A DNA stretch of 64,000 nt, taken from a virus (taxonomy: Duplodnaviria > Caudoviricetes). Below the pieces are notes generated by a model. That model saw nothing but the letters and a program-made list of their open reading frames with translations. It searched no databases and had not been told where the DNA came from. Made by a program: the position numbers and the translations under genes. The stretch is taken from the IMG/VR virus record IMGVR_UViG_3300031555_001469, one strand, 5' to 3'. This document shows, one piece after another, positions 10,033-60,866 of the stretch (position 1 is its first letter; every line of letters begins with the position of its first letter).

Positions 10033-10093
10033 AGAAATAACCTCCTTAAACACTATTACTATAGTGTCAAGAACTTTTTAACAAATTAAGATG

Positions 10094-11381: not shown

Positions 11382-11396
11382 TATCTAAATCCTTTT

Positions 11397-27077: not shown

Positions 27078-27091
27078 AATAATTACTCCTT

Positions 27092-29515: not shown

Positions 29516-29786
29516 AATTTTTAACCTCCTGTATTTTTATCGGTTTAATAATATGTCCGATAGGTGATTTAATTGTAGTAAAACTGTATCCTACCGCATT
29601 AGCGTATCTTATGATAGACTCTAATGTAGGGCTTCGATCAAAGTTAGATTCAATAGCTGAAATAGTACTAAGGGCTAGCCCCGATCTCTCAGCAAGTTCC
29701 TGCTGAGAGATGTGGGAGCTCTTTCTAGCACTTAATAAATTCATTCGAATCATACGATCTTCGATTTCATAATCAAGCGCTTCCAT
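29502..29786 (-). CDS. XRE-family HTH regulator
   Basis: SQQELAERSGLALSTISAIE...PTLESI. Confidence 0.85.
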   Translation of the reverse strand: MEALDYEIEDRMIRMNLLSARKSSHISQQELAERSGLALSTISAIESNFDRSPTLESIIRYANAVGYSFTTIKSPIGHIIKPIKIQEVKNYECN

Positions 29787-29789
29787 AAT

Positions 29790-31206: not shown

Positions 31207-31207
31207 A

Positions 31208-31813
31208 TTATTTTTCCTCCTTATTAGAACGTGTATTAAATTCGTGAATGACTTCTTCAAGTCTATCACATAACTTAGTAGCCATTGTATCACGATCTTC
31301 TCTTAATACCTGTCCGGATTTGACAAGATTGTCTACGTGATATTTACATAATGGGAGCAAACTGCAGTCAGAGATTATCATATAATCAATTGCACTACAA
31401 TACTCAATCACCTGAGCTCCTTTATTATCTGGAAGGATGAAAGGTCTAATATCAAGACAGTCATAATGATATAACTGATTAATATTAAAGAATCCTAATC
31501 CGTCGAAGATATTACTCTTTACTTCATATAACGTATTAACCTGCACATCAGGTTTTCCCTTGCGCTCATGCTCAGGAACATAGACTCTAGCAGCGATAAT
31601 ACAATTTTCAGTGTTTAACTGTCTGAATGCGTTTAAAGCATTCTTCATCATAACTAACTTCTCATAAGGTAATCTTCCTCCAGTAATCTCAATGGATTCG
31701 ATCATTATGAGTTCTTTCTCACCGGTGATGTCAAGGATTTTCTTGGACATCTCGTACTGCTTACCATCATCATAATAGTAAGTAATTTTTACATTTCCTA
31801 AACTGAATTCCAT
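31208..31813 (-). CDS. Hypothetical protein, GNAT-like paralog
   Basis: MEFSLGNVKITY...FDGLGFFNI. Confidence 0.5.
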   Translation of the reverse strand: MEFSLGNVKITYYYDDGKQYEMSKKILDITGEKELIMIESIEITGGRLPYEKLVMMKNALNAFRQLNTENCIIAARVYVPEHERKGKPDVQVNTLYEVKSNIFDGLGFFNINQLYHYDCLDIRPFILPDNKGAQVIEYCSAIDYMIISDCSLLPLCKYHVDNLVKSGQVLREDRDTMATKLCDRLEEVIHEFNTRSNKEEK

Positions 31814-45511: not shown

Positions 45512-46321
45512 ATGGAACGACCTATTGGATATTTGATCGCCGAGTCTGCTATGACTACAAAGGCTGTAGATATCACAAATACTAATTCCCGTCGTGTAGT
45601 AGGAGAAGGAATCCTGCAGGACATGGATGTAGAAAATAGAAACGGTAGAATTTATGCTAAGGTAGACCTTGAACCAGAAGTTAGAGGTGCTAGATTAGCA
45701 GAACTTATTTCTACCGGTAACTTAAAAGGTGAAGATGGACATCCTGCTTCTAAAGAATTAGCAAGACAGCAGACCATCGACCCTCAGTGTGTATGTGTAA
45801 AATACACAAAGGTTTGGACTGAAGGTAACGATATTAAGGCTACTTTCATAGGCACAAACAATGATCTTGGTGCAGCATTTGACCAGGATTTAAGAGATGG
45901 TGAATTACCATCCTTCTCTTTACGTGCTTTAGGTACTATTGAAAACAAGAGTGGTAAAGCTTATGTAAAGAATATTAAGATTATTACTTGGGATAGAGTT
46001 TACTACCCATCCCATAAGAGAGCCTATACTTCTGGTTTAGTAACAGAGTCTGCTATCGCAGCAAACAGAAGTGGTAATCAGAGAGTATTCAAAGAAAGTG
46101 ATAAGGGTATTATCTTACCTATCACAAATGAAGAAGTAATTGATATGATCAAGAAGGAATCTGCTAATCTTAACAGATTACTTGATAGCTTTACCTCTGT
46201 ATATGAATCCATTAACTATAATCCAAAATCTAATCTTGTTGAGTTAAGAGATAGATTTGGTAATATGTATATGGTTCACGTAGAAAACTATATTCAGGAT
46301 CAGATCATGAAATATTGCTAA
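45512..46321 (+). CDS. Prohead core protease (T4 gp21-like)
   Basis: NRNGRIY, GEDGHP, FSLRALG, ITWDRVYYPSH; late motif at 45468-45480. Confidence 0.85.
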   Translation: MERPIGYLIAESAMTTKAVDITNTNSRRVVGEGILQDMDVENRNGRIYAKVDLEPEVRGARLAELISTGNLKGEDGHPASKELARQQTIDPQCVCVKYTKVWTEGNDIKATFIGTNNDLGAAFDQDLRDGELPSFSLRALGTIENKSGKAYVKNIKIITWDRVYYPSHKRAYTSGLVTESAIAANRSGNQRVFKESDKGIILPITNEEVIDMIKKESANLNRLLDSFTSVYESINYNPKSNLVELRDRFGNMYMVHVENYIQDQIMKYC

Positions 46322-46328: not shown

Positions 46329-46354
46329 CCCCTAGTAGATTTCTCTACTAGGGG
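46329..46354. terminator. Terminator hairpin, CCTAGTAGA family
   Basis: CCCCTAGTAGA-TTTC-TCTACTAGGGG between convergent genes. Confidence 0.75.
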
Positions 46355-46362: not shown

Positions 46363-46656
46363 TTATTTTTTGGACTTTAATGTCACTATTAATGAGTTTG
46401 CTTCATCAGTTACTTTTCTTTCTACCTTAACCAGGCAATTATACGCACTATAATTTTCGGTGGTAGAATGCTTATCTAAATCTGTTCTCGTGACTGATAA
46501 TACATTGATGTTTTCAAATATCTTTTCGATATCAATTACACTTTTAGACTCATTCATAAAAGTTAAAGACAATACTGTTGTGTTAGTAGAATCTTTTCTT
46601 TCGGTAATTAAAGTTAATGTATTAAGTTCAATCTTATTATTAACCGTTATCTTCAT
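46363..46656 (-). CDS. Hypothetical protein, last gene of rSAM operon 2
   Basis: 97 aa; GGAGG RBS. Confidence 0.6.
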   Translation of the reverse strand: MKITVNNKIELNTLTLITERKDSTNTTVLSLTFMNESKSVIDIEKIFENINVLSVTRTDLDKHSTTENYSAYNCLVKVERKVTDEANSLIVTLKSKK

Positions 46657-46685
46657 TGTACATCTAGCCTCCTTTTATATTATTG

Positions 46686-47771
46686 TTAATCTGTACAAAC
46701 GCTATCACAGTAGCAATTGTCATCACAACCACAGTCATAATCACATACACAATTGTAATTACAGCAAGTACCATTACAACAATTATAGTCGCATGTACAA
46801 TCATTACCGCATCCATCTGCGCAGTCTCCATAACATCCACAGTCACTACCGCATCCATCCGGACAGTCATAATTACAACAGTCTTTATTACAAGAACAGT
46901 CTGTTCCACATCCGTCTGCACAATCACTATTACAAGAGCAATCTGAGCCACAACCATCTGCACAATCACTATTACAAGAGCAATCATAACAGTTATCATG
47001 TTGGCAATCTGAGTTACAGCAATCATAACATCCATCAAAATTACAACAATCGCCATTGCAAGCTCCATACCAAACATCTCCACAGTCATTACAATCTGTG
47101 CAATCAATGCATCCTTCTTGACAGTCTCTATTACAAGGACAGTCATTTACACAACAATCTGTTCCACATCCGTCTGCGCAGTCTCTATTACAAGAGCAAT
47201 CTGAACCACAACCATGTGCACAATCACTATTACAAGAACAGTCTGTACCGCAACCGTCTGAGCCGCAACCATGTGCGCAATTACTATTACAAGAACAGTC
47301 TGCACCACATCCATCTGCGCAATCGTTATCACACGGGCAATTGCTATCACAATAACAGTCATATACGCAACAATCGTAACACTTATTACTATCACAATCA
47401 CAGTCATAATCACAGCAGTTATTATCACAACTACAGTTGAAATTACAACAATCCTGATAGCAACTACAATAATCCTTATACACAGATGCTTGTGTTGAAG
47501 ATAGAGTATTAACTTGGCTAGGAGACATACCGCTTATATCGGTTGGTAATGTACTACCTTTATAATAATAATTCATTCTATCACTACTATCTTTAATACA
47601 AGCATTAATCTGATTAATCATATTAAGCAGATACTGTTTATTAACAACAGTACCAGACGTTAAAGTTGTTGCTGATCCTGAAAATCCATATCTATTATAA
47701 GTTTTAATTACATTAGAATTTATGGTATTCATATCAGCAGCTGTTAATTTTTCACCTGACGATATAGCCAT
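46686..47771 (-). CDS. Cys/Asp/Asn-rich repeat protein, putative substrate of the adjacent radical SAM enzyme
   Basis: About 100-aa N-terminal domain, then about 80 Cys including a repeated 14-aa unit DCSCNSDCADGCG(S/T). Confidence 0.75.
   Translation of the reverse strand: MAISSGEKLTAADMNTINSNVIKTYNRYGFSGSATTLTSGTVVNKQYLLNMINQINACIKDSSDRMNYYYKGSTLPTDISGMSPSQVNTLSSTQASVYKDYCSCYQDCCNFNCSCDNNCCDYDCDCDSNKCYDCCVYDCYCDSNCPCDNDCADGCGADCSCNSNCAHGCGSDGCGTDCSCNSDCAHGCGSDCSCNRDCADGCGTDCCVNDCPCNRDCQEGCIDCTDCNDCGDVWYGACNGDCCNFDGCYDCCNSDCQHDNCYDCSCNSDCADGCGSDCSCNSDCADGCGTDCSCNKDCCNYDCPDGCGSDCGCYGDCADGCGNDCTCDYNCCNGTCCNYNCVCDYDCGCDDNCYCDSVCTD
46890..47335 (-). repeat. Imperfect 42-bp coding repeats
   Basis: CAATCACTATTACAAGA(G/A)CA-type units recur and encode DCSCNSDC. 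Confidence 0.7.
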
Positions 47772-47804
47772 ACTTTTCACACTCCTATCTTTTGTTTACA
47801 AAGA

Positions 47805-49022
47805 TTATTCGTGTTTAGAACACTTACATTCTTTTTTACTAAGCTGTTCTATTTTTTCTTCTAATCGATTGCATCTCTTCTCTAAGTAATCGATCTTATT
47901 AACCATAGACTCTAATAACTTACTTGTATTTCTTCGCTCAATGATATTAATAAATCTATAGTAGTGTTTATTAATAACCGTCATAAATTTCTCGTCATAA
48001 TTATTAGGTCTAGTATATAAATCCCCACCAAATTCAAAGTTTACAGCTACACAAACCTGACAAGGATTATCAGACATCTTAGATTCATCAATAGCAGCAA
48101 ATATAGCCTGAATTTCAGGATTAATAGGATTTTCATTATGAATATTTCCATATAAAACATCATTTCTTCTTTCAGAATTATAGAAGAAGAATCTATGGCA
48201 AGGATAGATATTTCCATCCGTATCCATTCCAACCATTCTTCTTCCTGAAGAACAACCAGAACATCTATCGAATCGCTTAAATGGGAATCTATTCTTATTC
48301 AACGTAATTTTAGATAAATCAGAATTAATCTTATCTAATTCTCTATCTAAAATAAGTACATCGTTATCGTCCCAATCATCTTCTATTACCCAAGCAAATT
48401 TAAAGTGAACCTTTAAAGTTCTAATAAAATAAAGATAAGAATCATAAAGTCTTGGTAAAGAAGATTTAGAAATTACAGAATGAACGTGCAGTCTCTCATG
48501 AGATATATTGTGTTTGTCAAAGAATTCCTTAAACTTAGGAATAGCAGCTTCAACCAGATCAGAAGATTTAATACATGTATTAGCACATGGTCTATTACCA
48601 TTCTGAATTTCTGGAATACCATCAATAGATAACTGAATATCTACATACCCAGTCAATCTGTACCACTCTTCTAAAAAGGCTTCAACCTTTTCATTATAAA
48701 TAGTACCATTAGTAATAATAGCAAACTTTATTTTAACACCAGTTTCTTTTTCTTTTTCTACACCATATCTAAGCATACTTATCATAAGATCAGTGCAGAG
48801 CATTGGTTCGCCACCAAAGAATGTAATATTAACAGTTCGCTTCTTATCGTTAGAAGCAATAGCATTTGCGACTAAAAAGTCAATCATTTTAAATGCAGTT
48901 TCTTCACTCATATACTTTGAAACAGCTCTAGTATCCTTTTCAAAGCAATACGTACATCTTAAGTTACAGTTTTCTGTTAAAATAAAATAACAGGAAGTGA
49001 TATTGGTATCCATCATAACCAT
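47805..49022 (-). CDS. Radical SAM/SPASM-type maturase 2
   Basis: CNLRCTYC, FFGGEP, TNGT, SIDG; C-terminal CSSG...GNIYPCHRF...CQVC; late motif at 49069-49081. Confidence 0.9.
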   Translation of the reverse strand: MVMMDTNITSCYFILTENCNLRCTYCFEKDTRAVSKYMSEETAFKMIDFLVANAIASNDKKRTVNITFFGGEPMLCTDLMISMLRYGVEKEKETGVKIKFAIITNGTIYNEKVEAFLEEWYRLTGYVDIQLSIDGIPEIQNGNRPCANTCIKSSDLVEAAIPKFKEFFDKHNISHERLHVHSVISKSSLPRLYDSYLYFIRTLKVHFKFAWVIEDDWDDNDVLILDRELDKINSDLSKITLNKNRFPFKRFDRCSGCSSGRRMVGMDTDGNIYPCHRFFFYNSERRNDVLYGNIHNENPINPEIQAIFAAIDESKMSDNPCQVCVAVNFEFGGDLYTRPNNYDEKFMTVINKHYYRFINIIERRNTSKLLESMVNKIDYLEKRCNRLEEKIEQLSKKECKCSKHE

Positions 49023-49101
49023 TTCTCCTTTAAAGTAAAATATTTGGTATATTGAGAAACAATATACCTTATTACTAAGTTTACAGTATACTAAAAACGA
49101 A

Positions 49102-49131
49102 AATCCTAGTAGAATTTAATCTACTAGGATT
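49102..49131 (-). terminator. Terminator hairpin, CCTAGTAGA family
   Basis: AATCCTAGTAGA-ATTTAA-TCTACTAGGATT. Confidence 0.7.
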
Positions 49132-49135
49132 AAGA

Positions 49136-49318
49136 TTATTCTTCTTCAGCAATCTGTGTATATTCAGTGTTAATCTTATTCACAAGTGTTGTATACTCAG
49201 ACTGAGTAAGATTCTTACCATTATAATACACACTACACATATCTAAGAGATCTTCCTTAGATCTAGACCTTGTATCAATAAGTCTTTTAATAAGATTATA
49301 TCCCATTGCTGTATTCAT
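49136..49318 (-). CDS. Small XkdX-like tail-module protein
   Basis: 60 aa; YYNGKNLTQSEY resembles the XkdX-type motif. Confidence 0.45.
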   Translation of the reverse strand: MNTAMGYNLIKRLIDTRSRSKEDLLDMCSVYYNGKNLTQSEYTTLVNKINTEYTQIAEEE

Positions 49319-49328
49319 AAAATACCCC

Positions 49329-49682
49329 CTATGAATTTAATTTTGCTCTTAATAAAGAAACCTCGTATAATAAATCAGCTTCATAATCTAAAAGAGCATT
49401 TACAGTTTTCTTAAGTTCTTTAATTTCTTCTTCCGGTGTTTTATTAGGTTCTATGACATTTTCTGTATCTTTTCTATAGAAAGTACCAGTTCTATGATCA
49501 TAATGATCTCCTATAGAAACAGGTATATTCGTTGTTTCTATAGCCAATGCATCAAAACCATAATCTTGTCTCGCCAACTGATTAGCAAATTCGTAGTTAT
49601 CACATACTATAGTATTCTTAACCACATAAATTTCTTTTATCTCATGATAAGATAATATAGCAAAAATCTGATTACACCACAT
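49329..49682 (-). CDS. Putative tail-fibre assembly protein
   Basis: VSIGDHYD...TFY followed by a coiled coil; late motif at 49721-49733. Confidence 0.4.
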   Translation of the reverse strand: MWCNQIFAILSYHEIKEIYVVKNTIVCDNYEFANQLARQDYGFDALAIETTNIPVSIGDHYDHRTGTFYRKDTENVIEPNKTPEEEIKELKKTVNALLDYEADLLYEVSLLRAKLNS

Positions 49683-49800
49683 AGTATCAAATCCTTTCTG
49701 TATAGTAGTTTAATAGTCGTTTATCTAATTGTTTTCCTAGTTGAACTATAACTGGAAATCCTGAACAAACCTATAAATGAAATAAAAAGGAGATGAGAAA

Positions 49801-50835
49801 ATGTATATAGGAATAGATGGTATAGCAAGACTTATATCAAAATTATATATTGGGATCAATGGAATAGCAAGAGAAATAACTAAAATGTATATAGGAGTAG
49901 ATGGATTAGCAAGATTAATATATCAAGCTGGCGTAGCAGCTGGTGAAGTAGTTTTTACTTCATCAAAATCTTGGACTGTGCCAGCAGGAGTTAGTAAAGT
50001 GGACATCTTCTGTGTAGGAGGTGGGGGTGGTGCAGGTGGCTGGTATTTTAGATACAATGAATCTAATAGTGCCGGTAGTTATACAGATACTACAAAAAAT
50101 GGCGGTTCAGGTGGCGGTGGGTATACTACAACAGCATTAGCTGTAGCAGTAACACCTGGCGAAACTCTTACTATTACAGTAGGTGCTGGTGGTGATAGAG
50201 GCGAAAGCTACGAATATTATAAATCATATGGTGAAACTGCACAACATTGGGGGTCCGTAACAAGTTCAGGTGACATTACAGCAGGAGCAACAGGTGGACA
50301 ATCATCTGTTAAAAATAGCAGCGGTACTGTATTATGTAGTGCTAATGGTGGTTCTGGTGGTGCTAAAGCTACGACTGGTACATCATCTGGAGCTTCTTAT
50401 GTATCAGCTGGAGGTGCTGGTGGTTCTGGTGGTGGTACTAGTACTGGTTGTTATTATGTATTTAATGGATCACAGGGAGATATTACAACTCATAGATCTT
50501 GGTTTAGTGCCGGTGGATCTACTGATATTTATAGAGCTGTAGATGGCGAAAGCGGCCCAAGTACTGAATATTATAGTGCATCATCAGATAGCACACCTAA
50601 CGTTTATAGTAAAGGTGGTACAGGCCAGGGCACGACTACAAGATATTTTGCGCAATCTGGAGGTACGTTATATGGCTCTGGAGGTACTCAACCATATGAT
50701 GCTACAAAAGTTTCTATAGGATATGGTCCTTGGGCTAATACAGGACATGGTGGCGGTTACGTATGGTATGATGGTTGGACTGGCGGATCTGCAGGATCTT
50801 CTGGTGTAGTTATCATTAGATGGGCTGCTCAATAA
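49801..50835 (+). CDS. Glycine-rich tail / receptor-binding-like protein
   Basis: Three 14-aa N-terminal repeats (YIGxxGxAR); WTVPAGVSKVDIFCVGGGGG...GSSGVVIIRW Gly-rich domain; late motif at 49764-49776. Confidence 0.65.
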   Translation: MYIGIDGIARLISKLYIGINGIAREITKMYIGVDGLARLIYQAGVAAGEVVFTSSKSWTVPAGVSKVDIFCVGGGGGAGGWYFRYNESNSAGSYTDTTKNGGSGGGGYTTTALAVAVTPGETLTITVGAGGDRGESYEYYKSYGETAQHWGSVTSSGDITAGATGGQSSVKNSSGTVLCSANGGSGGAKATTGTSSGASYVSAGGAGGSGGGTSTGCYYVFNGSQGDITTHRSWFSAGGSTDIYRAVDGESGPSTEYYSASSDSTPNVYSKGGTGQGTTTRYFAQSGGTLYGSGGTQPYDATKVSIGYGPWANTGHGGGYVWYDGWTGGSAGSSGVVIIRWAAQ

Positions 50836-50839
50836 ATAA

Positions 50840-50869
50840 AATCCCTAGTAGAGAAATCTACTAGGGATT
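50840..50869. terminator. Bidirectional terminator, CCTAGTAGA family
   Basis: AATCCCTAGTAGA-GAAA-TCTACTAGGGATT. Confidence 0.75.
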
Positions 50870-50873
50870 AAAA

Positions 50874-53057
50874 TTATTTATATACTACATAAATAGTATC
50901 AGTTGCTAAAGCACTCGAACCAGCAGTTAAATCTGTCGTACCTTTAGTTATCGGTCTTAAATTATAGTCTGAATAATTTGCTGTATGGAGCACAACGTGA
51001 TCTTTATATGTGCCATCAGAAGCTACACATCTATATTGTAATCCATTTTTATCATTAGGCTGATAAGTGTAATTACAAACCAATAAGCCTCTATAAGCAT
51101 TTTCTTGCCCAGGGGTAGTATAAGCTCGTACAGTAGCATGATTAGCATCCGCCAAGAATCTCCCATAGCCACTTTGTACAGCTATATTTCCAGTTAATGT
51201 ACCACCACTCTTAGGTAATGCATAAGTGCTAATGTTTCCAGAGTGCACCATTGTAACATTACCTGTTGTATTACTATTGAAATCTATATGGAATGCTTTA
51301 GATATTGAATTATGCGTAGCAAAGAATCTAATATGATTATCACATACATCAATGTGTACATCTTTATCAAATACATTATTAGTTTCTGGTTTAGCTAATA
51401 CTATCTCTCCACCTTCGCTACCAGAAGCGGCCATTATATAAAGTCCACCAGTAAATGTAGTCTTTCCAGTAACAGTACCACCAGATGTTTTTAAATATGT
51501 GGTAGAAATTTTATTTCCATCACCATCATTTAATGCTCTATTGGCATAGTACCAATTAGCTGGATTTTCTATAGTATGATCTACTGTAGTCATTGGGGTT
51601 ATTGTATAAGACACATCCCAACCACTTCCCCAATCTTCATATTTATTACCCCAATGGCCTATTGTCACATCAGAAATTCTGATATTAGGATAAGACCATT
51701 GAGTATCGGAGTTACCAATCTGAACAACACATTGCCCCCCATTATTTCCAAAATGTACAGGTAAATTACTAATTGCTGAATTAGCAGCAGATCTGCTTAT
51801 GGAATATGCTGATATACATTGCCAAATAACAGAATCTTTACATATATATCCAGCAACAAAATAATCACATGATTTATCTGGTTCAAAATCATATATGGAA
51901 ATTTTGAATTTAATCATAGTATAAGAATAGAATTGAGGTAGAGTAATTGTTAAATATCCAGTAACATTAGCTTCTTTAATAGAATAACTACCGCCTTCTG
52001 GATAAGCAATATATCCATCTTTTCCTACAGCCGGCAATTGAATTTCGCCTGCTGTTTCTTCATCTAAAATTTTAAAATAATTTGCATTTACATCAAATCG
52101 GTATAAGCCAGTATACCCATCTCTCATTAATAAAGATCCGTAAGCTCCAGCTGCATTACCAAACTGAATTCCGGCATCACCGGTTGTTTCAGTTCTAAAT
52201 AATCTCAGCATAATTGGATCTGAATGGGCTATGCGTATAGAACCATTTATTATACCACCTGATAAAGGTAAGCAATACATGTCATAATTACCAGTATCTA
52301 AAATTTCTTCAGCTGTAGAGAAATCACTAGATGCTCGCACTAAATAGCCATTGCTAAATCCGATAGAACCCATAATTTTAGCTTTATTGGCAAAGGCGAG
52401 CATTGAAGTATTATATTCACTAATATCATTAAGCATTAAAGGTATCATAGAAGCAGTTATTGCTTGCGAACCTATCACTTTAACTGCAGAGGAATCAATA
52501 TTATCAATGGCTTCAGTAATAGTACTACCAATTGAACTAATGTCAGTATCTCCTATTTTTGTAATCAATTCTATTAAACTCTTTATAGCTTTAGAAATTG
52601 ATCCAAATAAAGTTTTCATTGTACTTCCGGATGCAACTTCAGCCAAAGTTTCATCCTCAGTAAATTCTACCGTATTTGTACCTATGTCAGAATATTTTTC
52701 GACATAATTAAATAGATCTAAGTTAAATGCTTCTAATACTTGAGGCTCCTCTCCATCCCACCAAAAGTCAGGTGAACCCATATCTCTTATAAGAAAAGTA
52801 TCACCTACTTTGAGTGTAGCAATATTCTCATCAGTTAACCAAGCCTCTAATTCATCTATTGTATCAAAAACACGTATTGTTGTAGCTCCTTGAGCCATCG
52901 ATAATGCCATTTTAGCATTTTGTGAACTTTCCTCCACTTCACTATACAATTTAGTTACATTGCTAGATAATGACTCTAAATTTATTTTGTCTTCTTTAGA
53001 CATTAAACCATCTCTAGCACCTGTAGCAAAAGATCTAGGGAAATTATTATGAAGCAT
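50874..53057 (-). CDS. Tail fibre protein A
   Basis: True start MLHNNFPRSFAT with GGAG RBS; DGLMSKEDK; repeated LPxSGGxxxG fibre motifs; late motif at 53092-53104. Confidence 0.7.
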   Translation of the reverse strand: MLHNNFPRSFATGARDGLMSKEDKINLESLSSNVTKLYSEVEESSQNAKMALSMAQGATTIRVFDTIDELEAWLTDENIATLKVGDTFLIRDMGSPDFWWDGEEPQVLEAFNLDLFNYVEKYSDIGTNTVEFTEDETLAEVASGSTMKTLFGSISKAIKSLIELITKIGDTDISSIGSTITEAIDNIDSSAVKVIGSQAITASMIPLMLNDISEYNTSMLAFANKAKIMGSIGFSNGYLVRASSDFSTAEEILDTGNYDMYCLPLSGGIINGSIRIAHSDPIMLRLFRTETTGDAGIQFGNAAGAYGSLLMRDGYTGLYRFDVNANYFKILDEETAGEIQLPAVGKDGYIAYPEGGSYSIKEANVTGYLTITLPQFYSYTMIKFKISIYDFEPDKSCDYFVAGYICKDSVIWQCISAYSISRSAANSAISNLPVHFGNNGGQCVVQIGNSDTQWSYPNIRISDVTIGHWGNKYEDWGSGWDVSYTITPMTTVDHTIENPANWYYANRALNDGDGNKISTTYLKTSGGTVTGKTTFTGGLYIMAASGSEGGEIVLAKPETNNVFDKDVHIDVCDNHIRFFATHNSISKAFHIDFNSNTTGNVTMVHSGNISTYALPKSGGTLTGNIAVQSGYGRFLADANHATVRAYTTPGQENAYRGLLVCNYTYQPNDKNGLQYRCVASDGTYKDHVVLHTANYSDYNLRPITKGTTDLTAGSSALATDTIYVVYK

Positions 53058-53115
53058 CTTATCAGCTCCTTTCTCTTTAGGGTCTTTAGTATTATTAGGA
53101 TGTTTCCGTAGTAAA

Positions 53116-53144
53116 AGCCAGAGTATCAGAAAGATACTCTGGCT
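53116..53144 (-). terminator. Terminator hairpin, CCAGAGTATC family
   Basis: AGCCAGAGTATC-5 nt-GATACTCTGGCT with a T-tract on the minus strand. Confidence 0.7.
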
Positions 53145-53148
53145 AATT

Positions 53149-54561
53149 TTATTTATCTTTTTCTTCACTTCTACGTTTAAGTTCTTGCCAAGTAATATCT
53201 CCTTTATACTCCAAACTAGGAAGAGAAAGTAACATTTCAAATTCCTCTTCTGGAATAATTTTGAGAGCCCACTCTCTTGAAACGTATAAGTTATACCTAT
53301 TTTCAGGCTCTTTAAGTTCATAGTATTTAGCCCAATAATAAGCATTTGCTAAAGCTCTTGCTTTATGCATTTCACAGATATATGTCGCACGCTTATTAGC
53401 AGTACCATATGTCTGATAATTGTAAGCTGAGCACCATGAGCACCCATCTGCAATAGGGCAATAAAAGCATTCATCAGTACTCTGAGTTTTTCTATCAATA
53501 CAATTTAAGCAATTGATATTACAAGAATAATCTTCGGAAGTACCAATACCTTCATCAACACTACCTATTCTTAAAGGTTTTCTTGAACAACCTAAAGAAC
53601 TTTCCATATATCTAATACAAGGATAAAGATAACCATCTGGGTCACAGGCTAACATAAGGCAGTTACCACCACACCAATTTGTTATATCATCCTCATGTTT
53701 AGGTACAAAAAATTTCTCATCGAAAATGGATAAGAACACATCTTCAACCACATCTTTTTCAATTATATAATCAGCAGCTTGCTTTAACTGATAATATAAT
53801 TCGGTAGCATGGTGTTGTTCCCATCCTTCTTCATACACACAATTAGCATTAATATCTTTATAACCTAATTCAATCATGTGTTTTAAAGCAGAAAATACAT
53901 GCTGTATATTAGCCGGGGCAATAGTGATTTTACTTCCCATATAGTACCCTTTGGACATCCAATCTGTAGCACCAGCAATAGCAATATCATAGCTAGGAGA
54001 TCCATCGTGGAATACTCTACAGCTATCATGCAATTCTTTATTCCCGTCTATTGTAATAGAAAAAGAAATATTGTTTTTATACTTATCTAAGAATTTCTGC
54101 ACTCTTTCGTCAAAGTATAATACACCATTAGAGCAGATAGATATCATAAACTTATCAACCCATGGATGGTTCAATCTAATACATTCACGAAAGAAATAAC
54201 TTACTATCTTATCAATTAACTCTATTTCTAAAAAAGGTTCCCCACCAATAAATTCAATTATAACAGCAGGAGATTTAGAAGGGTTAATATATTCATCAAA
54301 TCCTTTTTCTCCACTAAGCAATAAATCGATAAATTTCTTAGCAGTTTCAAAAGACATTTTTCTTTGGCCTTTGTTAATCTGGTAGCAATAAGTACATGCC
54401 AGATTACAAGCGTCTGTTACCTGAAAAGTAACTGTACGAGATAAAGTAGAATTTGTTGATTTACCAGATTCATCTACTGTAACCAACTCAGGATATAATC
54501 TTGCAATCTTATCCTGATACTGTTCAAATTCTCGCCTGTTTCTTTTTCTCTCTCTAAGCAT
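53149..54561 (-). CDS. Radical SAM/SPASM peptide maturase, CXXX-repeat target family-like
   Basis: TFQVTDACNLACTYCYQ, FIGGEP; full SPASM WCGG...YPCIRY...CFYCPIADGCSWCSAYNY...ICEMH; resembles TIGR04115 as recalled. Confidence 0.88.
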   Translation of the reverse strand: MLRERKRNRREFEQYQDKIARLYPELVTVDESGKSTNSTLSRTVTFQVTDACNLACTYCYQINKGQRKMSFETAKKFIDLLLSGEKGFDEYINPSKSPAVIIEFIGGEPFLEIELIDKIVSYFFRECIRLNHPWVDKFMISICSNGVLYFDERVQKFLDKYKNNISFSITIDGNKELHDSCRVFHDGSPSYDIAIAGATDWMSKGYYMGSKITIAPANIQHVFSALKHMIELGYKDINANCVYEEGWEQHHATELYYQLKQAADYIIEKDVVEDVFLSIFDEKFFVPKHEDDITNWCGGNCLMLACDPDGYLYPCIRYMESSLGCSRKPLRIGSVDEGIGTSEDYSCNINCLNCIDRKTQSTDECFYCPIADGCSWCSAYNYQTYGTANKRATYICEMHKARALANAYYWAKYYELKEPENRYNLYVSREWALKIIPEEEFEMLLSLPSLEYKGDITWQELKRRSEEKDK

Positions 54562-54910
54562 TATGATCATCTCCTGATAATTCAAAGTTATCAAATGCTG
54601 TTCCGATTGTAGAGAATGTTAAAATACCAGAAGTAAAATCCAAGTTCCAATTTGCTACTGCATTAGCCTTCATGATTTCTTCTGGAATATAATTATTAAT
54701 TAATTCGTTCTTTCCTAATTCATAAGCAGCAACTCTTTCATTATACTTCTTATTATAAAGAACAAATGTTTCAGATTCAAGAATAGCAGGGTTATTAGCA
54801 TTATCTGTAATAAGCTCCTTAATAATCCTTGACATTCCTTCAAGTTCGAAAGATAATCTTTCGAGATAATCTACAGTTTCACTATTTACTTTCATAGCAA
54901 AATTTTTCAT
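54554..54910 (-). CDS. CXXX-repeat modification system accessory protein-like
   Basis: Helical protein ending NWNLDFTSGILTF, resembling TIGR04116 as recalled; overlaps the rSAM start; late motif at 54937-54949. Confidence 0.55.
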   Translation of the reverse strand: MKNFAMKVNSETVDYLERLSFELEGMSRIIKELITDNANNPAILESETFVLYNKKYNERVAAYELGKNELINNYIPEEIMKANAVANWNLDFTSGILTFSTIGTAFDNFELSGDDHNA

Positions 54911-54961
54911 AATATAATTCTCCTTTTTATTTTATTTTAATAATAAGTTCGAGGCATAATT

Positions 54962-55912
54962 TTATATAGTTTTACCAGTAGCTCCCCCAAAGCATTGAGA
55001 GGTACAAGAAGTATTACATGTAGAACTACAAGTAGAGCTACAACTACTCTTACAATTTCCAGAACAACTACTTGAACATCCATAACATCCACCATCGCAT
55101 CCAGAGCAACCAGAACATGATCCACCGCATCCAGAGCATCCATAGCAGTCTCCAGAGCATCCGCTACCACAACCACTACTACATCCAGAACAACCAGAAC
55201 ATGAACTACATCCATCACATCCAGAGCAACTAGTACATTGCCATCCACATCCACCAGTACATCCGCCACCGCAAGAAGCACTACAGCCACTACTACAGTT
55301 AGCAGAACCATCTGTTGATCCTGAACATGAACCTGTACAGCTAGTACAACCAGCACCGCATCCACCGCATGAAGAACAACCACTTCCGCATCCAGAGCAT
55401 CCGCCGCATCCACTACTACATCCACCACATCCAGAACATCCACTACATCCAGAGCATGAACCGCAGCCAGAACATCCCTTACAACCGTAAGTACAAGATG
55501 ATCCGCAACCAGAGCAGCCACCACATCCACCACATCCAGAACATCCACTACAACCAGTATTACACATACCATAACATAATCCAGTACATGCACCTCTACA
55601 AGAAGAAGATGAACCTGTTACAGATTCAGCTGCCCATTTATCTAATACACTATTTAAAGTAGCATAGTCGAAACTAGAAGGCAATTTTTCTCCAGCAACG
55701 ACATTTCTTAAATTACCTACGTCTGCTACTTTTAAAATTAAATCAATAGTTTTCTGCCCATGCTCCGCTAAAATTTTGCCGCCGGTAGCAGGACTAGTAG
55801 TAAAATCATAAGTAGCAGCAGTATAACCACTTAGTGAGCCATAATATTGTCTTCTGGCAAACTCAGTTTTTATTTTTGCTTTTATCGCAATTAATTCAGA
55901 CGGAGTCATCAT
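54962..55912 (-). CDS. Cys/Gly/Ser-rich CxxC/CxxxC repeat protein 1 (putative rSAM substrate)
   Basis: About 100-aa N-terminal domain, then about 57 Cys spaced every 3-4 residues; late motif at 55973-55985. Confidence 0.8.
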
Positions 55913-56007
55913 AAGTATTATTTCCTTTCTTCTAATATAGTATTTATAGGATTCTTAAGTAAGTATAACCTATTATTTAAATGTTTCTGTAGCCGATTCA
56001 GAGGTAA

Positions 56008-56038
56008 ATACCAGAGTATCGTAATGATACTCTGGTAT
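56008..56038 (-). terminator. Terminator hairpin, CCAGAGTATC family
   Basis: ATACCAGAGTATC-GTAAT-GATACTCTGGTAT. Confidence 0.65.
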
Positions 56039-56044
56039 ATCCAT

Positions 56045-56866
56045 TTAACTTTTTGTTGATGTTCCATAACACTGTGCAGTACACGTACTATAACAAGTAC
56101 TACTGCAAGTAGTATTACAGCTATTGATACATCCCGATGAACAGCTAGATGAACAGCCTCCTCCGCATCCAGAGCAGCTAGAACATCCGCTTGAACAATC
56201 AGCACATCCATTACACCCGCTACAAGAACTACAATGACCATCACATCCAGCACATAGCCCTTGACAGCCATTTACGCATGTACTATAGCATCCTCCACTA
56301 CACGTACTAGAACACATAGTACAATTAGCTTGACAGGCTCCAGAACATGACATACTACAACTGGTACAACCATTACAGCCAGAACATCCACCTTGACATC
56401 CTACTGAGCATGTATTACCACAAGCTGTATCACATCCACTACATGTACCGCAACCTGTACATCCGTTACAACTATTTTCGCAACCTGAACACCCACTACA
56501 TCCAGAACAAGTAGAACCACAAGTACCTACACATAAGCCAGTACATGCACCTCTACAAGAAGATGTAGCTCCGGTAATTTCTTCAGTTGCTAAAATGTCT
56601 ACATAATTAATTAAAGCTTCATCAAAACCACTCGGTATTAATAAACCAGTCGATACACTAGGTAATCCCTCATGATCTTTTATCTTTAATAGTAATTCAA
56701 TAGTTTTTTGACCATGCTCTGCTCTTATTAATTCTCCTGCAATTGGAGTAAATAAAAAATCATAATTAGCAGACGTATAGCCAGCTAACGATCCATAGTA
56801 TTTTCTTCTAGCAAACTCATCCTTAATTTTACTCTTTAGTGTAATTAGCTGAGCTGCTGATAACAT
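56045..56866 (-). CDS. Cys/Gly/Ser-rich repeat protein 2 (paralog of 54962)
   Basis: Shares EFARRxYYGSL, AEHGQKTI and [11 protein letters not shown] with 54962; about 46 Cys. Confidence 0.8.
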   Translation of the reverse strand: MLSAAQLITLKSKIKDEFARRKYYGSLAGYTSANYDFLFTPIAGELIRAEHGQKTIELLLKIKDHEGLPSVSTGLLIPSGFDEALINYVDILATEEITGATSSCRGACTGLCVGTCGSTCSGCSGCSGCENSCNGCTGCGTCSGCDTACGNTCSVGCQGGCSGCNGCTSCSMSCSGACQANCTMCSSTCSGGCYSTCVNGCQGLCAGCDGHCSSCSGCNGCADCSSGCSSCSGCGGGCSSSCSSGCINSCNTTCSSTCYSTCTAQCYGTSTKS

Positions 56867-56891
56867 AGATCATTTCCTTTCAATTTATTAA

Positions 56892-58511
56892 TTAGGATAC
56901 CATAATAAGTATCTTAACTTTTCCAATATCATCGGTATCTTTATTTTCTAAAGCTTTACCGATAATTGTTCCAGGAATAACAATATTTCTATCCTGAGTT
57001 ATTCCTACACCAGGTACATCTGAAGGGATAATAAGATCACCTTTAGATACAGTACCTTTTACTTTTACATATAATCGTCCTGCTAAACCAACAGGTACGA
57101 ACTTCTTATGGTTATCTTCCATATCTTCTAATTGTTCTCCTCCGACAATATGGCCATAGGAATCAGAATAAACACCAACGACCATAGTATCTCCATAACA
57201 ACTAGATTTAGTTACACCAGATTCTGCCCAAGAGACAATATCTCCCGGTTCAAATTCTTCGTGTATATTCTCTTTCTCAAACCACTCGGCATAGTCGTTC
57301 CAAACTGCGTTGTAAACTTTACTACCAGTGATTGTACCAGAAGCATTAATAGCTCCAGCTTTAAAAGTTACAGAATTTATTGATAAAGTACCACTAGCAG
57401 ATTCAATAATTCTTGATGTATAATCTGCAGTAGAACTACCAAAATGGAAATCAATATATGGTGTAGCTGCAAAAAGCTCCATACATTGACTTTCGAAAGT
57501 AGTACCTTTAATTGTAGCAGCACAATAAAAACTCTTTCCGCCAGATACTTTTACATATGTAGTATCTTCCATAAAAATACCGCCACCATAAGTACTATTG
57601 TACCACCCGTTACTGTATATATTTGCACATTTAACTGGAGCGTTAGCTGCTCCATCTTGAGCCATAAAATTAAATACGCCTGTATTATCCATTAATAACG
57701 AAGCTGCTATAACACCATTCCAATGGAATCCTATAGAAGGAGCATATCCTATTGTAGATTGAGTATTGCCAACTAATCCATTTTCTCTTATAGTTATGGC
57801 AGCATTGTTAAACCTATTTGCAGCTGTAGCTGTATATATACCGGCTGGTTCAAATAATCTTTTTCCGTTCATATTTATATCTCCAGTCATGATACCACCA
57901 GAGAGTTTTAAATATGATTTAGAAATATTACTAACTGCTTCAGATACGGTAGTACCTGAATCACTAACATCAGTAGATCCGACCCTAGCAATTAAACTTA
58001 TTAAATCGCTTACTGCTTTAGAAACAGTAGCAAATAATGTAGTTAATTTACTTCCGCTACTAATTTTTGTTAATTCTGTAGCTTCTGTATAAGCAACCGT
58101 AGTATTGCTCGCATTTCCTGATAAAGTAAGATAGTCACTAAGATCCACTTTTTCTGTTTCAAGAATCTGAAGCTCTTCGCCATCCCACCAATAGTCAGGA
58201 TTGTACATATCTTTGATTAATAAAGTCGTACCTATTTTGAGTCCAGCTTTATTTGTCTCTACTGCTAACCATGCATCTAAATCAGCTTTGGTTTCAAATA
58301 CAATAGCAGATACTTTATCGAGCGCTGTTTGTAACGCTAAATTAGCTAAATCTTTTACTTCTGGAACTTCACCTAAAAGATAATCGATATCAGCCCTATT
58401 TTCAGTAATATTTTTTGGAAATGTGTTATCCACTAAATATTTATCTTCTTTAGACATTAACCCATCTCTTGCAGATGTAGCAAAAGATCTAGGCAAATTA
58501 TTATGAAGCAT
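56892..58511 (-). CDS. Tail fibre protein B with a C-terminal intramolecular chaperone (peptidase G2-like) domain
   Basis: Same N-terminus as fibre A; C-terminal DYAEWF...PGDIV...VGLAGRLYVKV...KGDLI...IIGKALE; late motif at 58556-58568. Confidence 0.7.
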   Translation of the reverse strand: MLHNNLPRSFATSARDGLMSKEDKYLVDNTFPKNITENRADIDYLLGEVPEVKDLANLALQTALDKVSAIVFETKADLDAWLAVETNKAGLKIGTTLLIKDMYNPDYWWDGEELQILETEKVDLSDYLTLSGNASNTTVAYTEATELTKISSGSKLTTLFATVSKAVSDLISLIARVGSTDVSDSGTTVSEAVSNISKSYLKLSGGIMTGDINMNGKRLFEPAGIYTATAANRFNNAAITIRENGLVGNTQSTIGYAPSIGFHWNGVIAASLLMDNTGVFNFMAQDGAANAPVKCANIYSNGWYNSTYGGGIFMEDTTYVKVSGGKSFYCAATIKGTTFESQCMELFAATPYIDFHFGSSTADYTSRIIESASGTLSINSVTFKAGAINASGTITGSKVYNAVWNDYAEWFEKENIHEEFEPGDIVSWAESGVTKSSCYGDTMVVGVYSDSYGHIVGGEQLEDMEDNHKKFVPVGLAGRLYVKVKGTVSKGDLIIPSDVPGVGITQDRNIVIPGTIIGKALENKDTDDIGKVKILIMVS

Positions 58512-58657
58512 ATATTATCATCTCCTTCTTTTTAATTTTATCTAAAAATTAATTATTATAAGGATGTTTTTCCTTAAAAGGTGGATATAGATTAGATATT
58601 ACGGTTTCCACATATTAATAATATTGGGTATTTGCACCAGAAAAGGAGGTAACGGAT

Positions 58658-58753
58658 ATGGAAGAATACATCAATGAATTAGAAGAAGTTGACTTTATGC
58701 CAGACGAAGATTCTGGTGACGATGAAGAAGAGGAGGAAGGAAAGAATGAGTAA
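58658..58753 (+). CDS. 31-aa hyper-acidic peptide coupled to the lysin (absent from the ORF track)
   Basis: AAGGAGG RBS; MEEYINELEEVDFMPDEDSGDDEEEEEGKNE; stop overlaps the lysin start (ATGAGTAA). Confidence 0.6.
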   Translation: MEEYINELEEVDFMPDEDSGDDEEEEEGKNE

Positions 58754-60866
58754 AATTCTTTACGTACTTGACCCTGGTCACACTAAAGATTATAATAAAG
58801 GTGTAGCGCCGGGATATTATGAAGGTAACAAAATGCAGATATTAGCAGCTGCTCAGAAGAAATATTTAGAGCAGTATGGAATTACTGCAATACTTACTAA
58901 GGAATCTGCTAAAGAAAACCCTAGCTTATCTGCTAGAGGCAAGTTAGCAGTTACCAAGGGAAAAGGTTATGATATCGTAATCTTTGAAAGCTTACACACA
59001 AATGCTCCTGGTTCTGGAGATAGAGAAAAGATTTATGGAGTAAAGGCTATCAGATCTAAGTATTTACCTGATAGCGATCCGTTTATCACAACTCTTATGA
59101 ATACAGTGGCAGAAACAATGAAAAAGGGTACTGGTGTAACTTATGTAAGAAACACTGGTACTAGAATGGGCTCTGATGGAAAGACTGATTATTATGGTGT
59201 AATCAGAGCAGCAGTTCAGAGTGCTACTTCTGTAGAAAAGGCAGCTAAGGGGCCTGTTCAGTATGCATTTATTACAGAACATGGATTCCATACAAACTCT
59301 GCAGAATGTGCTTGGTTAAATGATGAAAAGAATTTGGATCTTTTAGCAAAAAATAAAGCAGCTAAGATTGCTGAATGGTTTGGTTTAGCTTCTACTGATA
59401 AGGATGAAGAGGAAGATGAAATTCTTACTTCTATTATGGGTGCAGCTTCCTGTACAGCAGAACAGATGGCAGCTTATTTATTATCTGTAAACCCTAATGC
59501 AGGTGTATATGCTACTGATATCCCTAAGTTATTCCTTGAAGAAGGAGCAGTTGAAGGAGTAAGAGGAGACATTGCATTTGCTCAGTCTTGTCATGAGACT
59601 GGTAACTTTAAGTTTACTGGTGATGTAGTTCCTGAACAGAATAACTTCGCTGGTATTGGTACTACAGGTGGTGGTGTTAAGGGTGCTTATTTTGAGAGTC
59701 CTAGATTAGGAGTAAGAGCTCAGATCCAGCATCTTAAAGCATATGCTACTAAAACTTTATTAAAGCAGGAATGTATCGATCCAAGATTCGGTCTTGTTAC
59801 AAGAGGTATCGCTCCGAATGTAGAAGACTTAGGGGGAAGATGGGCATATCCTGGTTACGCAACTTCTACGTACAATTCTTTAATTGAAGCAAAAGAAGCT
59901 AAGGATTCTTATGGTCATAAGATTGTAAAGATTCTTAACAAGATTGCTGCTATTGAAGTTAAAGAAGAAACTATCGAAGAAGATTCCAAACAGGAAGGCG
60001 AATTATACATCGTAGCATCCGCTTGCACTAAGAAGAGTGTATATGTGGATAGAGTTGGTGCCTTCAGATTATTAGACAATGCTATTGCTAAAGCAAAGTC
60101 TGAAAATAAGAAGGTATTTGCTGATAGTACAGGAGCACAGGTGTATCCTGAACCTGAAGTAAAACCAGTTGCTAAATATTATAGAGTAGCTAAGAATTTC
60201 ACAAATGGTAAATATGTTGGTCAGACCGGCGCTTTCAGTGTTTTAGTAAACGCTGTTAAGAATTGCGGAGAAGGTCTTCAGGTATTTAGCCCAGACGGAG
60301 AACCTTTATATCCTAAGTTTAAGAATACTAAGGTAGAAGGAAATCCTGGTACAATTCATATCATTAAGGACGGAGATTTTGGTGAAGGTGTTGAACTTCA
60401 TTATACTCCAGAATATGGTGATGCTAACCTTGATAAAGTTCATGGTCCAGCACACTTAGGAAATGTATATGATGTAGTAGGTACTGTAACTTATAATGAT
60501 AATACATTCTATTTATTATCTAATGGGAGTTACATTACCATATCTACCACATACGTTAAGTTTACTAAGAAAGAAACTAAGTTAACTTATACTGCTGGTA
60601 GATATAAAACAACTGATGTTATGGCATTAAGAGAAGGCCCTGGTACTACTTATGACAGGGTAGATTGGAATAAGATGACTGCATCTGCTAGAAAAAATAA
60701 TCCTGATAAGGGCACTGGTGCTTATTATAGAAAGGGTTGTACTTTCTATGCTTATGAAGTAGTAAATACAGATAAGACAGCTTGGGCTAGAACCCCATCT
60801 GGATGGATTTGTATTGAAGGTCCAAATAAGAATAAGCAGGTTAAGTATTGTACTCCTGTAAAATAA
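58746..60866 (+). CDS. Multidomain peptidoglycan hydrolase (Amidase_3 + GH73 glucosaminidase + SH3-like), probable endolysin
   Basis: LDPGH...SLHTNA...EHGFHTN; AQSCHETG...NNFAGIG; C-terminal LREGPG...GWIC. Confidence 0.85.
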   Translation: MSKILYVLDPGHTKDYNKGVAPGYYEGNKMQILAAAQKKYLEQYGITAILTKESAKENPSLSARGKLAVTKGKGYDIVIFESLHTNAPGSGDREKIYGVKAIRSKYLPDSDPFITTLMNTVAETMKKGTGVTYVRNTGTRMGSDGKTDYYGVIRAAVQSATSVEKAAKGPVQYAFITEHGFHTNSAECAWLNDEKNLDLLAKNKAAKIAEWFGLASTDKDEEEDEILTSIMGAASCTAEQMAAYLLSVNPNAGVYATDIPKLFLEEGAVEGVRGDIAFAQSCHETGNFKFTGDVVPEQNNFAGIGTTGGGVKGAYFESPRLGVRAQIQHLKAYATKTLLKQECIDPRFGLVTRGIAPNVEDLGGRWAYPGYATSTYNSLIEAKEAKDSYGHKIVKILNKIAAIEVKEETIEEDSKQEGELYIVASACTKKSVYVDRVGAFRLLDNAIAKAKSENKKVFADSTGAQVYPEPEVKPVAKYYRVAKNFTNGKYVGQTGAFSVLVNAVKNCGEGLQVFSPDGEPLYPKFKNTKVEGNPGTIHIIKDGDFGEGVELHYTPEYGDANLDKVHGPAHLGNVYDVVGTVTYNDNTFYLLSNGSYITISTTYVKFTKKETKLTYTAGRYKTTDVMALREGPGTTYDRVDWNKMTASARKNNPDKGTGAYYRKGCTFYAYEVVNTDKTAWARTPSGWICIEGPNKNKQVKYCTPVK

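Follow-up and report, generated by a model that had tools for sequence, protein, structure and literature searches.

Why should a large gut phage carry two radical SAM (rSAM) enzymes and three extremely Cys-rich proteins among its tail-fibre genes? The question is raised by a 64,000-nt stretch of viral DNA (Caudoviricetes, IMG/VR record IMGVR_UViG_3300031555_001469), hereafter the window, in which these genes occupy positions 46363-58511. The original prediction described them as one dual-enzyme system maturing virion proteins. Every gene of the region was found at its predicted coordinates (Table 1), among them the two rSAM genes, the gene for the small protein at 54554 and the genes for the three Cys-rich proteins, here called ladders A1, A2 and B, for which about 46-80 Cys had been claimed and 46 (56045-56866), 57 (54962-55912) and 81 (46686-47768), respectively, were counted. 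Since identical contigs from other faecal runs span most of the region, e.g., 46919-50180, 52565-56308, and 56288-57898, an assembly artefact is ruled out. The long ORFs rich in Val/Ile or in His/Asn that overlap the ladders are shadow frames of the repeats and were not accepted as genes, and an Rfam search gave zero matches.

Two Independent Modules in One Locus

Instead of a single dual-enzyme system, the locus holds two orthogonal enzyme-substrate systems with distant enzyme clades and different substrate grammars. Module I consists of a TIGR04115 rSAM/SPASM enzyme, a helper and the two Gly/Ser-type CxxC/CxxxC ladders A1 and A2, and module II of an rSAM enzyme of an unnamed clade, ladder B and a 97-aa partner. 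At the sequence level, each module combines one rSAM enzyme with one or more ladders, in which a helical domain of ~100 aa with three repeats is joined to dozens of regularly placed Cys. A local duplication was rejected as the source of both enzymes, which share 24% identity and belong to distant clades. Our best explanation, held with somewhat more than even confidence, is that two maturation modules were acquired separately, each for virion appendage proteins.

Table 1. Features of the region 46363-58511 and its borders, with positions given for the window.
Feature	Coordinates	Strand	Remark
Bidirectional terminator-like hairpin, end of module II and of protease gene	46329..46354	.	
97-aa partner, predicted miniature Hcp/tail-tube beta-barrel fold	46363..46656	-	model pLDDT 94.7
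Type II ladder B, 360 aa, 81 Cys, own ~100-aa N-domain	46686..47768	-	CxC, CC, CxxxC spacing
Module II enzyme, unnamed rSAM clade, Twitch-like	47805..49022	-	cluster-1 ligands C257, C275, C324 kept
Promoter-like motif, before ladder B, within 3' end of module II enzyme gene	47835..47848	-	
Terminator-like hairpin, upstream of module II	49102..49131	-	
60-aa protein	49136..49318	-	PHROG 2310 (unknown function)
117-aa protein	49329..49682	-	no family matched
Promoter-like motif, before Gly-rich gene	49764..49777	+	
Glycine-rich-domain protein (PF21722)	49801..50835	+	convergent with fibre 2
Bidirectional terminator-like hairpin, between fibre 2 and Gly-rich gene	50840..50869	.	
Fibre-like protein 2, 727 aa, fibre 1 paralogue	50874..53057	-	46% over first 205 aa
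Promoter-like motif, before fibre 2	53091..53104	-	
Terminator-like hairpin, 3' of module I enzyme	53116..53144	.	
Module I enzyme, TIGR04115 rSAM with full seven-Cys SPASM	53149..54561	-	499.4 bits vs cut-off 350
Module I helper, 118 aa	54554..54910	-	relatives keep gene between ladder and enzyme
Promoter-like motif, before helper and module I enzyme	54936..54949	-	
Type I ladder A2, 316 aa, 57 Cys, Gly/Ser-rich	54962..55912	-	N-domain 56% identical to that of A1
Promoter-like motif, before ladder A2	55972..55985	-	
Type I ladder A1, 273 aa, 46 Cys, spacing 3 or 4 only	56045..56866	-	follows ~100-aa helical N-domain
Fibre-like protein 1, 539 aa, C-terminal Peptidase_G2 intramolecular-chaperone domain	56892..58511	-	PF11962 30.8 bits, cut-off 25
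Promoter-like motif, before fibre 1 and ladder A1	58555..58568	-	

Enzymes and Helper

Both enzymes have a CX3CX2C motif (C19/23/26 and C52/56/59) and hold an auxiliary cluster 1 with three Cys, as in thioether-forming maturases, and with the ligand spacing of CteB, so that the predicted likeness to such maturases is borne out. The description as two rSAM/SPASM enzymes is correct for 53149-54561, in which the seven Cys typical for two auxiliary clusters are present (C297, C315, C377 in cluster 1 and C365, C368, C374, C396 in cluster 2), but not for 47805-49022, which lacks three of the four cluster-2 ligands and thus does not reach the seven or eight Cys that two clusters demand. Only C321 of its cluster 2 remains, the first CxxC and the last Cys being missing throughout the family alignment (62 homologues at 41-65%), and an N-terminal RRE is absent. 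Of the HMM checks suggested, that with TIGR04115 succeeded for the module I enzyme and failed for the module II enzyme, which scores 95.1 against the cut-off of 350 and forms a separate clade, and that with TIGR04116 failed for the helper. NF047865 (PapB) stays below its cut-off of 340 for both enzymes (148.8 for module II and 166.5), as does TIGR04463 (Crp; 45.3 and 52.8 vs 525). The module II enzyme passes none of the curated HMM cut-offs, and no close relative of it was found in the IMG/VR or JGI scans. TIGR04116 gave zero matches to 54554-54910 at E up to 10, and one homologue scored 13.9 vs a cut-off of 50. Since this protein occupies the helper slot and its predicted fold recurs fused to CXXX-family rSAMs (Atlas TM 0.68), it may nevertheless be a functional equivalent of the TIGR04116 helper.

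Two Types of Cys Ladders and the 97-aa Partner

In the type I ladders, between about half and 60% of the Cys intervals measure 4 residues and nearly all others 3. They have neither a strictly conserved acceptor residue nor, in A1 and A2, the Asp/Asn signal at Cys+3 that marks type II. The target models TIGR04114/04117/04118 do not match the ladders, though low-complexity filters may remove such repeats. The start of ladder B, ATG at 47768, agrees with the starts of its homologues, and Asp/Asn follows at Cys+3 in 51/73 cases vs 32.4 expected (p=0.0005). This signal is confined to +3 and not seen at +1, +2, or +4, and over 20 type II ladders Asp, Asn and Glu make up 69% of the Cys+3 residues. 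Ladder B therefore shows the repeated C-x-x-acceptor motif of a large Cys-rich protein of the Crp type, whereas the CX3D motif of the PapB type is not supported (Asp/Asn at +4 in 13/35 vs 15.4 expected).

When the type I N-domain model (pLDDT 62) was searched by fold, the PDB offered nothing beyond generic helical proteins (Z up to 5.2), and BFVD yielded three phage relatives, all uncharacterised. PDB sequence searches with the ladders, the N-domain profile and both fibres gave nothing meaningful, and no recognised virion-anchor domain was found in stand-alone ladders. Compared directly, type I and type II N-domains match with a probability of 2%, whereas a broader repeat profile, partly circular for type II, matches them at 95% and 98%, respectively. 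Their homology is likely, not proven.

The model of the 97-aa partner aligns with Hcp5 over 91/97 residues (rmsd 3.3) with a middling Z of 9.0. Nearly all top-50 rows of the fold search are Hcp, tube, Dit or baseplate chains, the best Foldseek match having an E of 0.0097. Partner homologues adjoin ladders of both types, although the family lies beside only 20/61 ladder loci, most of these 20 being profile seeds.

Fibre Genes, Neighbors and a Shared Promoter-Like Motif

Out of the two proposed tail-fibre paralogs, 56892-58511 has the C-terminal autochaperone domain known from tail fibres, and in 8/10 related loci the gene immediately preceding that of the module II enzyme likewise has a Peptidase_G2 domain. 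50874-53057 is called fibre-like as its paralogue; it matches PHROGs of unknown function only and lacks tail HMM and PDB matches, and its start lies at about 53057 instead of 53345. The Gly-rich gene is present as predicted, yet on the plus strand, and for 49136-49318 and 49329-49682, which had been called fibre-assembly-like, no named family was found.

The motif AACW-N6-TAAW occurs at 18 intergenic sites vs 2.6 expected (0/2000 shuffles), although it was partly built from these sites. It stands upstream of the capsid, protease and both fibre genes and of 55912, 54910, 49801, 49682, 47768, and 46656, and a related phage keeps it upstream of capsid and protease. The claim that every unit shares the motif of the capsid and protease genes thus holds in the main, but the site upstream of 49022 has one mismatch and the motif is not exclusive to structural genes, as it also precedes the non-structural-looking genes 12898, 17438, and 34895. 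A "late" class is presumed for it. Sigma-70 promoters were found at chance level.

Recurrence in Other Phages

A ladder lies within 4.5 kb of the enzyme in 45/57 enzyme clusters, and the enzyme clade follows the ladder type: the module II clade (100/100) is paired with CxC-Asp/Asn ladders throughout. Ladders are missing from the surroundings of some related viral rSAMs. Module II recurs in nine other contigs, in one of them with baseplate and lysis genes on either side, and two other contigs have both systems. The expected linkage to tail genes holds in unrelated phages, as in 30 independent phage loci, counted on their own, the large gene upstream is annotated as tail in 17, as other virion protein in 3 and not at all in 10. 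Prophages show the order baseplate J, short collar fibre, ladder, enzyme, lysis, and in one module II prophage the cassette sits in the same slot while the long fibre gene is absent. Moreover, in-frame fusions join ladders to Hoc-like/FN3, GDSL or glycine-rich domains, and the helical domain is found at either end of ladder proteins. As a general hot spot, the tail-lysis junction also collects cargo of unrelated kinds. Since Salmonella and Erwinia jumbo phages contain a related cassette, the suggestion that thioethers stand in for disulfides in an anaerobic niche has a weak rationale. Virion papers on phage SPN3US do not mention these genes and are uninformative on ladders, because both SPN3US ladder ORFs are unannotated.

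Proposed Function and Alternatives

We favor, if by a modest degree of confidence, the view that subunits of virion fibres or appendages are stapled by thioethers; both the virion location and the thioether chemistry of the ladders are inferred. By analogy to CteB, PapB, and CrpC, each enzyme would hold a Cys of its substrate on the open iron site of auxiliary cluster 1 and abstract a hydrogen from a nearby residue, which would lead to a Cys-carbon thioether, and this would be repeated down the ladder. In module II, Cys is most likely linked to the beta-carbon of Asp/Asn at +3; in module I, in which acidic acceptors are absent, it is probably linked to small residues (Gly, Ser, Thr). Since neither would read the ladder of the other, both enzymes would be required. 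The position of the genes, the fusions and the fold of the partner suggest that the stapled ladders might form thin, non-reducible fibre, tip or decoration segments of the particle. The helical domain would then be recognised by the enzyme and/or used for docking, and the small tube-fold protein would act as assembly chaperone or sleeve. The whole picture, that phages staple virion fibres with dozens of thioether rings, here by two orthogonal codes (TIGR04115 with Gly/Ser vs a single-auxiliary-cluster clade with Cys-x-x-Asp/Asn) and a mini tail-tube-fold chaperone or sleeve, we regard as evenly balanced.

Best surviving among the alternatives, though unlikely, are metal-thiolate polymers (Cu, Zn or Fe-S) in the virion or the cell, the enzymes making few or no thioethers or only pre-organising metal sites. 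The CC and CxC of type II together with Asp are metallothionein-like. A Cys spacing of 3 and 4 recalls copper-storage proteins, but the weak match of the type I profile to Csp3 (E 0.018) is compositional and Gly/Ser-rich ladders disfavor a helical bundle. CrpA was also proposed to bind metals (PMC13692751); however, metal binding needs no dedicated rSAM, yet here the enzyme clade predicts the ladder type, and the fixed position of the Asp/Asn signal argues against it as well. Also unlikely, and ranked next, is that virion ladders are modified by other chemistry, i.e., epimerisation, desulfuration, cleavage of the backbone or the formation of formylglycine known from anSME. The SPASM/Twitch enzymes cover a wide range of reactions; HxsB/C, for example, cut a protein with a gain of +8 Da (PMC13128918). 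No characterised TIGR04115 member was found in the literature searched, and the module II enzyme is below every curated cut-off. Against this, the best characterised HMM neighbors (PapB, SCIFF, QhpD) form thioethers, cluster 1 with its open site is kept in both enzymes, and the CxxD/N grammar agrees with CrpA. Third in rank and doubtful is non-virion cargo at the recombination-prone tail-lysis junction, RiPP-like products against host, competitors or defense systems with the N-domain as long leader, as the CrpA-like leader-plus-core layout, the modules' own promoters and terminators, their mobility between phage types and the ladder-free viral rSAMs could indicate. No exporter, leader peptidase or immunity gene is found among the neighbors and no double-Gly leader or hydrophobic signal peptide in the sequence, as had been predicted for the adjacent genes; with these hallmarks of secreted RiPP clusters missing, the view that the product is not a secreted bacteriocin is supported. 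The in-frame fusions to virion-type domains, the helical domain at either end, the prophage fibre slot filled by the cassette and the predicted tail-tube fold of the partner likewise speak against cargo. Finally, that the ladders are merely fibres disulfide-bonded after lysis beside unrelated rSAM genes is very improbable, for although disulfide bracing is common in Cys-rich repeats, ladder and enzyme co-occur and their types covary, and the TIGR04115 definition itself rests on such targets.

If thioether stapling of virion proteins is true, the uncharacterised TIGR04115 family would gain a function, and the rSAM genes in many phage tail modules would be explained. Stapled ladders would add a novel material to those from which virions are built, with RRE-less enzymes possibly installing up to about 80 non-reducible cross-links per chain, and virion proteomes would overlook a class of unannotated, hard-to-digest components. 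With two enzymes and three substrates in one genome, the window lends itself well to a cross-over specificity experiment.

Comparison with Known Systems

We found no paper on radical-SAM modification of any virion protein. The module I enzyme is a member of the CXXX-repeat system, which is catalogued in NCBIfam (TIGR04115 maturase, TIGR04116 helper, TIGR04114-type targets) but uncharacterised. Alike are the three-gene layout of target, helper and enzyme and the small residues separating regular Cys; different are the targets of 273-316 aa with folded N-domain and mixed 3/4 spacing, the failure of the target and helper models, the setting in a phage tail module and module II, which is outside the family. 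QhpD (quinohemoprotein amine dehydrogenase) and the HXS system are similar as rSAMs that mature proteins instead of secreted peptides, but they are cellular and have few modification sites, and HXS is anti-phage and not Cys-based (PMC13128918). The predicted fold of the 97-aa partner is that of Hcp and phage tail-tube proteins; the partner is smaller, with 6-13% identity. For the ranthipeptide maturases PapB/PapA (freyrasin) and CteB/CteA, the PapB model is the best named HMM neighbor of the module II enzyme, and the cluster-1 ligand scheme and an acidic acceptor after Cys are shared. PapB tolerates acceptors from i+1 to i+7 (PMC12373016). Module II differs in the acceptor at +3 instead of +4, the absent RRE, the lost cluster 2 and a substrate of 360 aa. 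CrpA/CrpC (TIGR04463) of Methanococcus voltae, for which ranthionine links were shown, resembles module II in that the substrate is large and Cys-rich, carries an N-terminal domain and contains C-x-x-D/Q motifs as repeats. The protein stapled by CrpC at CxxD-type motifs has 29 kDa; the three-Cys cluster 1 of the enzyme is essential, whereas cluster 2 is not strictly required (PMC13692751). In contrast, CrpA/CrpC belongs to archaeal cells, CrpC contains an RRE as well as both clusters, and the CxC and CC spacing is denser in ladder B.

Phage and putative transcription units

The window belongs to a large phage with at least 112 kb more of the same genome upstream, for which a capsid-based search revealed one relative, a 249-kb contig. 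The DNA is found in animal faecal metagenomes, and identical contigs in other runs confirm the sequence. Most of the nearest relatives of enzyme I in genome collections come from contigs of Bacillota such as Lachnospiraceae and Eubacterium, and several lie in clear prophage tail modules, which makes a clostridial host likely. All ORFs of 46363-58511 are real, as originally predicted, including three Cys-rich proteins with 46, 57 and 81 Cys, here called ladders. Terminator-like hairpins and the phage-specific motif AACW-N6-TAAW, with 18 intergenic sites in the window versus 2.6 expected, split the region into units (see table). The motif is also present upstream of the capsid and protease genes, both in this phage and in its relative, and could help to map the transcription units of this phage. 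The sharing of a promoter-like motif with these genes holds, but the label "late" is only presumptive, since the motif precedes some non-structural genes as well. The true start of the lysin ORF probably lies later than the first start codon. A homologue of the start of the Gly-rich protein also precedes the module II enzyme of comparison locus L086, where it is encoded on the other strand.

Features of the window and of comparison loci or contigs (L- and P-numbers, own coordinates)
Feature	Position	Strand	Remarks
AACW-N6-TAAW sites	2391-63296		18, intergenic
Apparent anaerobic ribonucleotide reductase, activase, folate enzymes	26547-31813	-	by inspection only; no promoter motif
Major head protein gene	39925-41718
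Acidic protein	41814-42956	-	380 aa, extremely acidic, repetitive; adjoins capsid gene; no family
Head maturation protease gene	45512-46321
Unit: enzyme II, ladder B, 97-aa partner	47805-49022, 46686-47768, 46363-46656	-
Unit: two small genes
Unit: Gly-rich gene	49801-50835	+	opposite strand
Gly-rich protein N-terminus	49798-49914		14-residue unit, ~3 copies
Unit: fibre 2 alone	50874-53057	-
Unit: ladder A2, helper, enzyme I	54962-55912, 54554-54910, 53149-54561	-
Unit: fibre 1, ladder A1	56892-58511, 56045-56866	-
Lysin	58689-60866	+	amidase_3, glucosaminidase; divergent from fibre 1
L004-L040, e.g. L004	8033-9649		type I ladder, variable ~190-aa C-terminal extension
L048-L080, e.g. L052	6772-9222		~816 aa; fusion of ladder and two ALK/LTK glycine-rich domains; large gut phage group
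L081 (SPN3US, NC_027402), CXXX ladder ORFs	9094-9486, 9497-9901		130 and 134 aa; 21 and 20 Cys
L089, L187	8310-8981, 5181-5987		223-268 aa; barely more than anchor and Peptidase_G2 chaperone domain
L090 (bacterial contig)	5333-11458		4 or 5 tandem rSAM paralogues
L094, L097, L103, L105	5961-6656, 10298-11239, 248-1225, 4990-5874		third ladder grammar: CxC then Arg-Thr motif, period 9-11
L144	3618-4733		Hint (intein-like) or Hint-looking domain after ladder
P0103, P0106			as L144

Two separate enzyme systems

Of the two predicted radical SAM (rSAM)/SPASM enzymes, enzyme I scored above the TIGR04115 cut-off in the HMM search and has a complete CteB-type ligand set; by sequence it can be assigned to a family that is catalogued but unstudied, and in the searchable literature the name TIGR04115 led only to an unrelated paper. 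Enzyme II, however, passed no curated model in this search. In its family (62 further proteins, 41-65% identity), the three ligands of cluster 1 are retained and spaced as in CteB, but the first CxxC and the last Cys of cluster 2 are gone. Thioether formation is known for Twitch enzymes with one cluster (PMC10177961), and cluster 2 is not strictly required in CrpC (PMC13692751).

Instead of the proposed dual-enzyme system, two systems are present: the enzymes share 24% identity, are far apart in a 50-enzyme tree, and each goes with its own ladder type. Ladders of the enzyme II clade (support 100/100) all contain CxC and are mostly rich in Asp/Asn, whereas the clade around enzyme I has exclusively 3/4-spaced Gly/Ser ladders; such labels are shared by kin, so that the clustering is visible but does not itself prove co-evolution. 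The co-occurrence of both systems in two other contigs, each enzyme adjoining its own ladder type, is the stronger point. The rSAM clade adjoining ladders of the third grammar is probably sister to module II. The L090 paralogues are enzyme II relatives with the cluster-2 Cys retained, and no ladder gene lies near them.

Ladders and the 97-aa partner

All ladders have a helical domain of ~100 aa with three repeats, located N- or C-terminally among relatives, and the domains of both types match one broader profile. In type I ladders, 98% of the Cys intervals are 3 or 4 and Gly is enriched at Cys+2; close relatives differ in having the C-terminal extension. In ladder B, 51 of 73 Cys+3 positions hold Asp/Asn versus 32.4 expected (p=0.0005, internal repeats lowering independence), with no such enrichment at Cys+4. 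Among 20 type II ladders, Asp/Asn/Glu occupies Cys+3 in 69% versus ~44% background. The 97-aa partner is homologous to small genes adjoining type I ladders (95%) and thus accompanies ladders in both enzyme clades, although members of its family were seen at no more than 20 of the 61 ladder loci. Its model (pLDDT 94.7) is structurally closest to chains of Hcp, the tail tube, Dit and the baseplate (Z 9.0, rmsd 3.3, 91 aligned). This hints at tail assembly more than at peptide export, although fold likeness proves no function.

Linkage to virion genes

The predicted tail linkage was recovered across phages. The 164 related-enzyme loci form 57 clusters at 70% identity, 45 of them with a ladder within 4.5 kb of the enzyme; for 30 of these 45, the nearest large upstream gene matches tail PHROGs (17), other virion PHROGs (3) or nothing named (10), without a control set. 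Prophages of the myovirus type carry, one after the other, baseplate J, a short gene for a collar fibre, the ladder, helper and enzyme genes, and lysis genes. Module II in nine other contigs follows the order Peptidase_G2 protein, enzyme, ladder, ~100-aa partner, in one of them between baseplate and lysis genes without a long fibre gene. The short Peptidase_G2 proteins of L089 and L187 stand immediately upstream of the module II enzyme, and the ladder may provide the shaft that they lack. In-frame fusions join ladders to Hoc-like/FN3 domains, to a GDSL esterase and to tandem glycine-rich domains; a J-like tail tip protein is a weaker case. In Salmonella phage SPN3US, the baseplate/fibre genes gp167-169 are immediately followed by two rSAMs and two ladder ORFs that lack annotation. 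The phage record annotates an overlapping shadow frame in place of these ORFs, and virion proteomics therefore could not have picked up these ladders.

Proposed function and known systems

On balance, we favour that each enzyme would form many short thioether rings along its own ladder, and that the stapled product would be incorporated into the particle as fibre, tip or decoration element. The genes, their motifs, the ligand sets, the enzyme-ladder pairing and the gene context are direct observations, while the chemistry, the acceptor residues, the location in the virion and the role of the partners are inferred. That the Cys-rich ladders are metal-thiolate polymers appears unlikely, that the rSAMs perform another chemistry on them slightly more doubtful, and that the cassettes are non-virion cargo marginally more doubtful still; plain disulfides are very improbable.

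On thioether formation by phage rSAMs, the literature searched yielded nothing relevant, and the rSAMs of Campylobacter phages were interpreted as metabolic aids (PMC2853527). The accessible literature offers no description of the virion setting, the module II enzyme clade or the dual code. The stapling chemistry would be of a known kind, because CrpA sets a precedent for thioether stapling of a large protein. The putative Cys+3 acceptor of type II ladders falls inside the range tolerated by PapB (PMC12373016), and in ladder B its spacing equals that of the motifs cross-linked by CrpC in the 29-kDa CrpA (PMC13692751), which is the closest experimental precedent.
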